In this document: positions 14,482 to 19,710 of the stretch, in pieces
How the letters are laid out: each line of letters starts with the position of its first letter
How positions within the stretch are numbered: position 1 is the stretch's first letter
Assembly (NCBI RefSeq): GCF_003334335.1
Contig: NZ_QOWQ01000006.1
Length of the DNA stretch: 64,000 nt
Source: Escherichia coli
GTDB taxonomy: Bacteria; Pseudomonadota; Gammaproteobacteria; Enterobacterales; Enterobacteriaceae
Direction: 5' to 3' (one strand)
The notes under the pieces: model-generated
What the model saw: only the letters and a program-made list of their open reading frames with translations
What the model was told of the DNA's origin: nothing
Database searches by the model: none
Made by a program: the position numbers and the translations under genes

Positions 14482-15546
14482 CTAGTTATAGGTGATTTTC
14501 AGGATTACGTCTTTACTAAACGGTCCCTCAACAACCGTTTCTGCCGGGTTCGCACTCAGTTCTGCCCTGAATGGTGCGGTGACCGAAGGCGCACTAGACG
14601 ATGAAAAAGAAGCAAATTGTGAGAAGCGGTTAAATTCCGTTGCTGTTCCATCGTTATGAAATATCTTCAATAGCAGACCATTACCTATATCCAGATGGCT
14701 ATAATCACTCAAAATATCCGTAGTGAAAAAACTCCCTAAAATATTAAACTGCTCAGTACAGGCCGCACCCGGATCTTTGGTCATGACTACGCTAAACGTC
14801 TCACTCACGCTGGTATTTTTAATTGTTCGGGAATTTATTTTACCAAAGTCGACAACGCCATCAGCTGGTTCCAGATCAACATTAACAAAGCAGTCAAGGA
14901 CATGAATGTTATTTAATCCGCGAATCCTGAAGGTCAGATTTTTATCTACTTCTATAGCACCTGCTCCGCTCATACCTTTAAATTCAAGTGCTATATATTC
15001 GTCAGGTAATACAAGTTTTTTATTTACTTTATTGGCATTTTTAGCTAGCTTAATATATAGCTGCACTCGTACTGGAAAAGTTACTGATAATTGCGGTTCA
15101 GGACCGCCACTACAGACTGCGGGCTTTTTGTAGCCATTCCCGAAGGTTCCGGCTCCTTTTATATCAATACATACAGGTGCTGCAATAGGTAGTGGAGATG
15201 TAGAATCATAATCAACCCCATTATAAGTTACACCGAAAGTATAAGAGTTTTGATTATAAAAGTCTTGACCTGATGCTAACAACATCATTATATTTGCCCA
15301 TGCAGATGGGTATTCTTCTCCTGGAGATGGGCCTGGTAGTGCATTATTACAGAAAACATTCATAAAATATTCACTGCTTTGCCAGATTTTATCACCTTTT
15401 TTACCATCGCTGGGGATAGAGATTCTTGGTACGTAACCAATGACAACGGTATTTCCACCTTCATGTTCAGCATAGCAGTCCATTGCCCATGCAGGTAATG
15501 AACTAAAACCCATAAAAAAAGTAATAACAATTAACAAGTAGCGCAT
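14482..15546 (-). CDS. yqiI: fimbrial adhesin-like protein (chaperone-usher pathway)
   Basis: 354 aa with signal peptide; last gene of the fimbrial cluster. Confidence 0.75.
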   Translation of the reverse strand: MRYLLIVITFFMGFSSLPAWAMDCYAEHEGGNTVVIGYVPRISIPSDGKKGDKIWQSSEYFMNVFCNNALPGPSPGEEYPSAWANIMMLLASGQDFYNQNSYTFGVTYNGVDYDSTSPLPIAAPVCIDIKGAGTFGNGYKKPAVCSGGPEPQLSVTFPVRVQLYIKLAKNANKVNKKLVLPDEYIALEFKGMSGAGAIEVDKNLTFRIRGLNNIHVLDCFVNVDLEPADGVVDFGKINSRTIKNTSVSETFSVVMTKDPGAACTEQFNILGSFFTTDILSDYSHLDIGNGLLLKIFHNDGTATEFNRFSQFASFSSSSAPSVTAPFRAELSANPAETVVEGPFSKDVILKITYN

Positions 15547-15547
15547 A

Positions 15548-16305
15548 TTATTGATCTCGGTTGGCTACAGAAATATTACAAATGTTATTTACTACAGGGC
15601 AGTTTATTTCATAAAAACTTAATCCACCAAAGTCATTGATATAACCCACCTGAAAAGTTGACGGAACATTTTTAAACTGCGTATTTGCATAGCTAAAAGG
15701 GGTTACCATTAAGCTTTGCGTTTGTGGTAACATCGTTACCCCATTTGTTCCGATATAACCCAGCGTAACGTGATAAGGCATCTTATTGTTAAAGCGGATC
15801 GAACCGTCATTTCTACGAATGATTTCAACTTTTTCGTAAGTCATTACCCCATCGTCTTCTAATTCAATGGCTTTTGGCCGCCAGAATAGTTTCAATGCGT
15901 GCTGCATAGTGACTTGCATCACATTTTTTTATCTGTTTTGGGCGGTATTTCTCGCACGTTAAAATAGAAGAGCGTTTCTCTGTCTTTAGGAAGTTGAGCA
16001 ATTTTTTCCTGAGTTATCATTCTTATTTGAATTTGCTCACTGGGATTTAAACGCACCATTGGAGGAACAGTGACAATAAAGTCACGCGATTTATTGCCTT
16101 TCGTATCTTCTATCCATGTTTGGGCCAGATAGGGCAGGTTTTTACTTTGATTAGTAAGTTTTAATGCTTCGCCTTTATCTGACTCATTCATTATGATACG
16201 GGTACGATCCGGGATGATGGCACCCCAGGCAATGCTGCTCATACAGGAGAGTAATACTCCTGCTGCAATGATATTCTTTGTATTTAAGTAGCGCATTAGT
16301 TTCAT
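15548..16305 (-). pseudogene. yqiH: PapD/FimC-like periplasmic fimbrial chaperone, split by a frameshift
   Basis: N-terminal part (15919..16305, ends ...FYFNVREIPPKTDKKM*) and C-terminal part (15548..15922, ...MQHALKLFWRP...) are both chaperone-like but in different frames; the junction is a T7 run at 15924-15930. Confidence 0.7.
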
Positions 16306-16311
16306 CCTGAA

Positions 16312-18825: not shown

Positions 18826-18875
18826 TTATCATTAATCCGTTAATGATGTGGCCGGGCGAACCCGGCCAAATGCGA

Positions 18876-19427
18876 TTACTCGTAAGCAATCTTGTAGTCA
18901 GCCTGAGCGTAAACGTTGCCCGGGGTGGCATCTTTGCTTGGGGATTCCATACGAGCTTTGAAATTCAGTTCCTGATAGCTGTTGGTATTGTTGAACGTAA
19001 TTACTACCGGAGTACCTAAAGTTACTTCGCCGCTCTGGCTGTCCAGAATACGTACGCCAACGCCAGTGGCGCCGCCGATTTCAGTTTCTTTGGTATTTTT
19101 CAGAAGATCAGACTGACCCGTCATGGTATTTGCTGTAGTGAAAGTAACCTTCGCTTTTGAATAAGTAGTTCCACCCTGACTCAGCATGCAGTCCTGCAGG
19201 TGAATAGTGAAAGGTTCAGCCAAAGATTTCTGATCGCTTTTCAGTACGGTATCTGCTACTTCACCCAGATTTACAGTTAAATCTTCGTCACCTGGTTTAA
19301 TAGAACATGGAGCAGAGATAACTTCACCTTTAAATTTAACAATACCGTGACCTTCATCAGCAAACACGTTATTGGAAAGAATCATTGCTACGCCAGCAAC
19401 AAGAAGTGACTTTTTAAAAGCGGACAT
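18876..19427 (-). CDS. ygiL: fimbrial major subunit-like protein
   Basis: 183 aa with signal peptide and C-terminal beta-strand ending ...YKIAYE typical of pilins; first gene of the cluster. Confidence 0.8.
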   Translation of the reverse strand: MSAFKKSLLVAGVAMILSNNVFADEGHGIVKFKGEVISAPCSIKPGDEDLTVNLGEVADTVLKSDQKSLAEPFTIHLQDCMLSQGGTTYSKAKVTFTTANTMTGQSDLLKNTKETEIGGATGVGVRILDSQSGEVTLGTPVVITFNNTNSYQELNFKARMESPSKDATPGNVYAQADYKIAYE

Positions 19428-19710
19428 AATATTCCTTTATATAAAGATAAGTAGAAAAGAGAATGATTAGTAACTGTTATTTAAGGACTACTAATCATTG
19501 AAATATGATATTTTATTTTGTGTTTTTTATAAAATTAGTTTATCTAAATATCGATTAAGTAAAACTTAAAAAATACATTGCAATTATACTTTCAATTGTA
19601 CTCATTCATTTTTGTGATGGTTTTCTGAATGGGATTACGCGATAAGGTAATAGAAAGCACTATAAATTAGAGGATTAATTCATAATTTACAGTGCATTAA
19701 AGACGAATGT

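Follow-up and report, generated by a model that had tools for sequence, protein, structure and literature searches.

An uninterrupted usher gene beside a frameshifted chaperone gene in a chaperone-usher fimbrial operon of Escherichia coli

Does an uninterrupted usher gene make a chaperone-usher fimbrial operon functional? The question is raised by the ygiL-yqiGHI cluster on contig NZ_QOWQ01000006.1 of Escherichia coli assembly GCF_003334335.1, which we analyzed within a stretch of 64,000 nucleotides (the window). In the open reading frame (ORF) listing, four co-directional genes occupy positions 14482–19427 on the minus strand, and family matches confirmed the order given in an earlier note made from the sequence alone: ygiL for the pilin subunit, followed by the genes of an usher (yqiG), a chaperone (yqiH) and an adhesin-like protein (yqiI). 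The region is very probably the known chromosomal operon for “Yqi-like” fimbriae, a chaperone-usher type present in E. coli of phylogroups A and B1, and the same confidence attaches to its general mechanism. The locus is long annotated, already known, ordinary and normally silent; what the present analysis adds is confined to a frameshift in the chaperone gene (real or an assembly error), the assignment to the Yqi-like type rather than to that of extraintestinal pathogenic E. coli (ExPEC), and support for the promoter and for H-NS binding from published in vitro data.

The window is collinear with positions 3206177–3140841 (reverse complement) of the K-12 strain MG1655 and ~99.98% identical to it over 64 kb. 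The two differ by 15 single-nucleotide polymorphisms (SNPs), by one 1-bp deletion, and by the 1331-bp insertion sequence (IS) element IS2I, which is missing from the window. The operon (b3043 and b3046–b3048 in MG1655) occupies the same glgS-ubiK locus with the same gene order and shows 99.9% DNA identity, with three SNPs that are all synonymous; this location and the near-identity to the K-12 genes are the features by which a cluster is recognized as “Yqi-like”. In MG1655, yqiG is annotated as a two-piece pseudogene that is split by IS2I 71 nt after its start, with a 5-bp target duplication. At the corresponding place in the window, 71 nt into yqiG, the junction alignment shows a single copy of ATAAC (+ strand, 18746–18750), i.e., an empty IS2 target site. 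Once IS2 and the target duplication are removed, the amino-acid sequence of MG1655 YqiG equals that of YqiG in the window; together with YgiL and YqiI, three of the four operon proteins are identical.

Of 5426 complete genomes, 367 contained the full length of a 100-base probe for the yqiG/IS2 junction, and 40 of the 40 listed among these were laboratory or K-12-type strains. The earlier note had stated that K-12 has an IS2 in yqiG and, seeing none here, had proposed a lineage other than MG1655. The MG1655 alignment bears out this statement, in agreement with a published compilation in which K-12 is entered as “IS2::yqiG” and the cluster is intact in strains W, B, and Crooks (PMC3032704); the proposed lineage is upheld by the missing IS2, the 15 SNPs in 64 kb and the restriction of the junction to laboratory or K-12-type strains among the 40 listed. 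The IS2 insertion in yqiG is specific to K-12, and the usher gene in the window is the ancestral, uninterrupted form. Judged from its sequence, the strain is not K-12 and is a very close relative within phylogroup A. A K-12 derivative that had lost IS2 by precise excision was considered as well and rejected on account of the 15 SNPs.

The usher gene yqiG (16312–18816, minus strand) has an unbroken reading frame and encodes an outer-membrane protein of 834 aa from the RefSeq ATG at 18816, or of 837 aa, the length given before, if the frame is followed from a GTG at 18825. All three usher domains are present (PapC_N, 35–177; Usher, 195–747, E = 1.8e-190; PapC_C, 759–811), and among solved structures PapC is the best match (E = 2.7e-172).

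It is the chaperone gene that is broken. Located at 15548–16296 on the minus strand, yqiH belongs to the PapD-like periplasmic chaperones and is a pseudogene here, with 749 nt instead of 750. The ORF listing shows it as two abutting ORFs (15919–16305 and 15548–15922), of which one matches the N-terminal and the other the C-terminal half of fimbrial chaperones in NCBIfam. The frameshift described in the earlier note can be traced to the loss of one base: a run of T7 on the + strand (15924–15930) stands against T8 in MG1655 and in strain UMNF18, which corresponds to a change from A8 to A7 in the gene, a −1 frameshift, and a resulting stop codon TGA at 15921–15919. Besides IS2, this deletion is the sole indel relative to MG1655 in 64 kb, and RefSeq flags the same allele as “frameshifted” in strain ECCTRSRTH03. 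K-12 thus combines IS2I in yqiG with an intact yqiH (A8), whereas the window combines an intact yqiG with a frameshifted yqiH (A7).

The intact YqiH of UMNF18, identical in protein sequence to that of MG1655, contains the domains PapD_N (27–144) and PapD_C (170–226), and its best solved relative is PapD (E = 5.9e-42). In the alignment with PapD, R33 corresponds to PapD Arg8 and K136 to PapD Lys112, and the G1 donor strand (VMQVTMQHALKLFWRP) lies just past the frameshift. Translation of the window copy ends with ...EIPPKTDKKM and a stop after residue 124; truncated at residue 125, the product lacks the G1 donor strand, K136 and the entire domain 2. A two-domain chaperone with G1, Arg8 and Lys112 is therefore encoded by the intact allele and not by the window copy. 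In donor-strand complementation, a chaperone without G1, the invariant lysine, and domain 2 is unable to chaperone subunits. As written, the operon would be assembly-dead despite its intact usher: since the chaperone is cut before the G1 donor strand, an uninterrupted usher does not make the operon functional. The frameshift in yqiH is a second, independent route of decay of this cryptic operon.

This answer depends on the frameshift being real. We consider a true mutation the probable explanation and give a smaller, still substantial weight to a sequencing or assembly error in the homopolymer, in which case the real strain would have a fully intact operon and could form fimbriae once de-repressed. 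The lesion affects a single base in a homopolymer that ranks third in length in the region, as an error might; yet it is also the only such indel relative to MG1655, and runs of T8 (11288) and T9 (50634) elsewhere in the window were read correctly and are unchanged. Exact-match probes among the complete genomes counted the allele A7 in 72, A8 in 1486 and A9 in five. The 72 A7 genomes are scattered over unrelated assemblies; one of them is DHB4, a K-12 derivative from a lineage in which A8 is otherwise the rule. Such a scatter fits recurrent slippage or recurrent mis-calling of homopolymers, and as an expected outcome of the latter it counts against a mutation. So do the ratio of deletions to insertions (72 to 5), which resembles long-read under-calling, and five genomes that carry A8 and, over 25 kb, differ from the window at this base alone. 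On the other side, groups of genomes of the same size or from the same study share A7 (e.g., 25-07338, 25-07233, 25-06685, and LB858871), which fits inheritance, and because IS elements often break the operon in other strains, real decay is to be expected.

The same run of A could also be read as a functional switch, either as a contingency tract in which slipped-strand changes turn the operon on (A8) or off (A7, A9), or as a site where slippage of the polymerase or ribosome on A7 yields some full-length chaperone. A7, A8, and A9 alleles all exist, the A8 run (codons 122–125) is kept in both the A and the B1 allele, and a −1 slip of tRNA-Lys on the run would restore exactly the wild-type D-K-K-N-V-M-Q. 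Still, we regard a switch as highly improbable. The run simply codes for Lys-Lys-Asn and is not found in the B2 paralogue, where the sequence is AAAGAACAGAAT, and A7 and the other frameshifted (off) alleles make up only ~5% of genomes. As a T precedes the run, the heptamer is not of the canonical X XXY YYZ type (in-frame context GAU AAA AAA AUG), and folding of the downstream RNA was not above the level of shuffled sequence (z = −1.19); a programmed −1 ribosomal frameshift site was therefore set aside. Runs of seven or eight A are short for efficient transcriptional slippage, and phase variation by homopolymers is not known for chaperone-usher fimbriae of E. coli.

Lesions in this operon are also found in other genomes. 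By megablast, 3247 of the 5426 genomes matched the cluster along 80% or more of its length, the B1 allele being 94.6% identical, and about 1000 further genomes contain only a ~65% identical version that spans usher and chaperone. Other genomes carry IS1 (IS1A), IS2, IS3, IS5, ISKpn26, IS903B, ISEc33, ISVsa5 or IS421 in the same operon, and such variety points to relaxed selection or to the AT-rich island being a hot spot for IS elements.

Two further matches to the operon concern yqiG. A 1.75-kb fragment of its 3′ part (95.7% identical, corresponding approximately to 16244–18069 of the window) is located on the resistance plasmid pG3X16-2-3 (positions 4075–5826 of the extract), where it lies between IS26 and IS1A and adjoins sul3; 73 plasmid places matched the operon query. 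The entry NZ_CM135829.1 (4.83 Mb), labelled “DH5alpha”, has a B1-type allele (94.7% identity) in which yqiG is free of IS2. It is thus not the genome of the K-12 strain DH5alpha and is probably mislabelled.

The first and last genes of the operon encode the structural subunits. ygiL (18876–19427, minus strand) encodes the major pilin subunit of 183 aa, which matches the NCBIfam equivalog NF007276 with 384 bits (cut-off 189) and is identical to MG1655 YgiL. A signal peptide ending in VFA and a C-terminal Tyr motif mark it as a secreted pilin of the Fimbrial family, and its solved relatives are FimA and PapA. The family matches of YgiL, YqiG, and both yqiH halves show that these are not chance ORFs. 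Between ygiL and yqiG, the transcript is predicted to form two hairpins (18828–18867, minus strand), one of them G+C-rich (GGCCGGG-UUCG-CCCGGCC, 18867–18850) and the other AU-rich (18847–18828). Their minimum free energy is −23.9 kcal/mol (z = −2.83 relative to shuffled sequences) and they are not followed by a U tail; by analogy with other fimbrial operons, they may stabilize the pilin message or attenuate read-through, and may set the ratio of pilin to usher.

The product of yqiI (14482–15546, minus strand) has 354 aa, identical to those of MG1655 YqiI, and is laid out as a signal peptide (1–21), a receptor-binding domain (22–218), and a pilin domain (about 228–354). Residues 22–218 are 91% identical to PDB 9RWE, a stand-alone domain of 197 aa that in turn is identical in 197 of 197 positions to the B1-type allele of YqiI. 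The pilin domain was less readily recognized: no NCBIfam family matched YqiI, residues 228–354 gave a weak match to the Pfam family Fimbrial (E = 0.0024), and a BLASTP comparison of the C-terminal 136 aa with YgiL was not significant (E = 0.6), so that Pfam and the fold comparison were used instead. In the AlphaFold model (predicted local distance difference test score 72.7), the top full-length fold matches were the two-domain tip adhesins LpfD, CupB6, PapG, CsuE, and CfaE, and the pilin part matched PapA and FimA with target template-modeling scores of about 0.6–0.7. The identity to 9RWE and the fold matches justify the label “adhesin-like” given to yqiI in the earlier note, and the model supports its classification as a two-domain tip adhesin.

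The A and B1 alleles of YqiI (601–1665 of the B1 extract) differ in 25 aa, of which 17 fall into the receptor-binding domain, five into the signal peptide, and three into the pilin domain; YgiL is 99.5% identical between the same alleles. The pattern in YqiI suggests diversifying change at the binding domain. Receptor-binding domains from the YqiI family have recently been deposited in the PDB as 9RWE, 9RWU/9RWV, 9RWW, and 9RX0; a literature search with 9RWE, 9RWU, 9RWW, and 9RX0 returned irrelevant papers only and no publication on these structures. At 15253–15294, inside yqiI, two sites that resemble sigma-70 promoters overlap and match at 10 of 12 positions each, TTGACC-18-TATATT on the + strand and TTGTTA-18-TATAAT on the minus strand.

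Why the operon should normally be silent is best seen upstream of ygiL. The regulatory spacer between ubiK and ygiL (19428–19710, minus strand) had been described as very AT-rich with A/T tracts, and indeed its 283 bp have a G+C content of 23.3%, the minimum of the window, with only 0.03% of all 283-bp windows as low, and hold nine A or T tracts of 4–6 bases, as in promoters silenced by H-NS. In K-12, genomic SELEX (systematic evolution of ligands by exponential enrichment) identified a constitutive RpoD promoter, TCGATA-17-TATAAA, in the spacer between yqiC (ubiK) and ygiL, together with an H-NS binding site in the same spacer in vitro (Shimada et al. 2014, PMC3946193). The exact motif from this RpoD-holoenzyme study occurs once in the window, at 19554–19526 on the minus strand (0 expected by chance), where we place the predicted sigma-70 promoter of ygiL (19526–19554). 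The spacer that carries the published RpoD and H-NS sites has no differences from MG1655. Silencing by a nucleoid protein, which the earlier note had put forward from base composition, therefore gains support that is indirect: H-NS silencing of the operon is well supported at the level of in vitro binding, and in the literature we found no data on derepression of ygiL in an hns mutant. Many such fimbrial operons in commensal strains are cryptic and repressed by H-NS (Wurpel et al. 2013).

Other regulatory inputs have been published for K-12 and for pathogenic strains. The RpoS holoenzyme binds the spacer weakly and the inside of yqiI strongly (peak intensity 68.5) in K-12 SELEX (PMC5493296), ygiL is raised by over-production of BolA (PMC4337573), and Yqi-like genes show higher expression in Shiga toxin-producing E. 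coli associated with hemolytic uremic syndrome (PMC6033998). A phase-variation switch of the Pap type, based on Dam and Lrp, can be excluded, as there are no GATC sites in 19428–19710 and no regulator ORFs, PapI/PapB-like or other, in the island.

From what its family does, an intact version of the operon would work as follows. Transcription would start from the sigma-70 promoter in the 283-bp AT-rich spacer, which is bound by H-NS in vitro, so that the operon would normally be silent. Subunits would be exported via the Sec system and capped, each by donor-strand complementation, by the PapD-like YqiH. The PapC-like usher YqiG would take the two-domain adhesin YqiI first and then, through donor-strand exchange, polymerize YgiL pilin below the adhesin.

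Several points weigh against this account. A generic promoter scan gave 10 sigma-70-like sites compared to 15.7 in shuffled sequence, and its top match in the spacer (TTTATA-17-TATCAT, 19533–19505) differs from the SELEX-derived promoter; as the scan was not enriched, the ygiL promoter rests on the SELEX study. The H-NS binding is a published in vitro SELEX result and not a test of silencing in vivo. In the literature, we found no expression or assembly data for the A-type allele.

Among known fimbrial systems, the operon falls into the pi clade of the usher phylogeny of Nuccio and Baumler, in which a published table also lists ygiL-yqiGHI (PMC3032704). The usher scores 578 bits with PapC compared to 294 with FimD, the chaperone 147 bits with PapD compared to 84 with FimC, and the usher gene lies upstream of the chaperone gene; this placement is based on scores and gene order. 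P pili, the prototype of this clade, are the obvious reference: no solved structures are closer to YqiH and YqiG than PapD and PapC, the usher gene comes ahead of the chaperone gene, an order also seen in pap, and Arg8 and Lys112 are conserved in intact YqiH. Unlike pap, the operon in the window has two structural subunits only, without equivalents of PapH, PapK, PapE, and PapF; it also lacks the regulators PapB and PapI and the pair of GATC sites for Dam and Lrp, and the receptor-binding domain of YqiI is unrelated in sequence to PapG. In NCBIfam, the usher scored highest with StdB (695 bits) and the intact chaperone with StdC (151 bits) of the Salmonella Std fimbriae, but both scores are far under the equivalog cut-offs (1289 and 370, respectively). 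By NCBI’s criterion, the proteins are thus relatives and not orthologues.

Of practical importance is the relation to the ExPEC adhesin I (Yqi, EA/I) operon of avian and uropathogenic E. coli (APEC and UPEC), since published data on adhesion and glycan binding would apply directly if the two were the same. The gene names and the order pilin, usher, chaperone, and adhesin are shared with the B2 cluster (APEC IMT5155, UTI89, CFT073), both are of the pi class, both adhesins have two domains and about 350 aa, and the chromosomal neighbourhood is common. However, in the B2 strain JJ1887 (sequence type 131) the cluster is flanked by ribB and zupT and glgS directly neighbours ubiK, protein identities amount to 60% for the pilin, 55% for the usher, 50% for the chaperone, and 38% for the adhesin, and nucleotide identity is ~65% and limited to usher and chaperone. 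Antao et al. place their cluster outside MG1655, and Wurpel et al. separate “Yqi” from “Yqi-like”, the latter occurring in phylogroups A, B1, D, and E and being mutually exclusive with “Yqi” of B2 (Wurpel et al. 2013). An identity with ExPEC Yqi is accordingly next to inconceivable; it is refuted by the differing site and by the protein identities of 38–60%, and B2-type genomes gave no megablast match. The short fimbriae, the colonization of chicken lung and the binding of terminal N-acetylglucosamine and fucosylated glycans have been described for the B2 type only (Antao 2009, Day 2021).

The B2 insertion site between ribB and zupT corresponds to 21027–21171 of the window, a short AT-rich ribB/yqiD spacer that is the empty counterpart of the site of the 5.5-kb ExPEC Yqi/EA-I island. 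With one island between glgS and ubiK and the other between ribB and zupT, these are two related, mutually exclusive fimbrial islands at alternative sites 1.3 kb apart.

The limits of the Yqi-like island could be drawn by comparison with the empty glgS-ubiK site of the B2 strain JJ1887. The island spans 5.3 kb (~14469–19770) and has a G+C content of 41% compared to the window mean of 50.7%. Homology with JJ1887 restarts only at 19771, so that the last ~20 codons of ubiK (19711–19770, minus strand) are on the island side of the junction and the island takes in the 3′ end of this gene. UbiK has 96 aa here compared to 99 aa in B2, and its C-terminal tail appears to have been replaced when the island was inserted. 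At the other end, a G+C-rich hairpin (14443–14462) is located between the convergent genes glgS (+ strand) and yqiI (minus strand), 20 bases past the yqiI stop codon. Its sequence, AACGGGCC-TGAT-GGCCCGTT, leads into a run of T on the + strand, and it is probably a transcription terminator shared by glgS and yqiI and the 3′ end of the operon.

Structured RNAs were found on both sides of the island. Just outside of it, upstream of ribB and divergent from ubiK, lies a flavin mononucleotide (FMN) riboswitch (RF00050, 121 bits, 20123–20271, + strand). Farther away, two Sib antitoxin RNAs (Rfam RF00113) occur in tandem at 10903–11052 and 11278–11427 (+ strand; 142 and 148 bits); their counterparts in MG1655 are the type I toxin-antitoxin pairs sibD/ibsD and sibE/ibsE, and the repeat units are ~91% identical to each other.

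Beyond annotation, these results have little significance. If the frameshift were an assembly error, the operon of this strain would be intact, whereas in K-12 its function is not open to study. The ExPEC Yqi/EA-I data are not transferable to the Yqi-like allele, whose adhesin is just 38% identical, and an intact usher should not be equated with a functional operon. What the locus shows is one cryptic, H-NS-bound island whose decay has taken different forms in near-identical backgrounds: IS2 in the usher gene of K-12, a homopolymer frameshift in the chaperone gene here, and various IS elements elsewhere.

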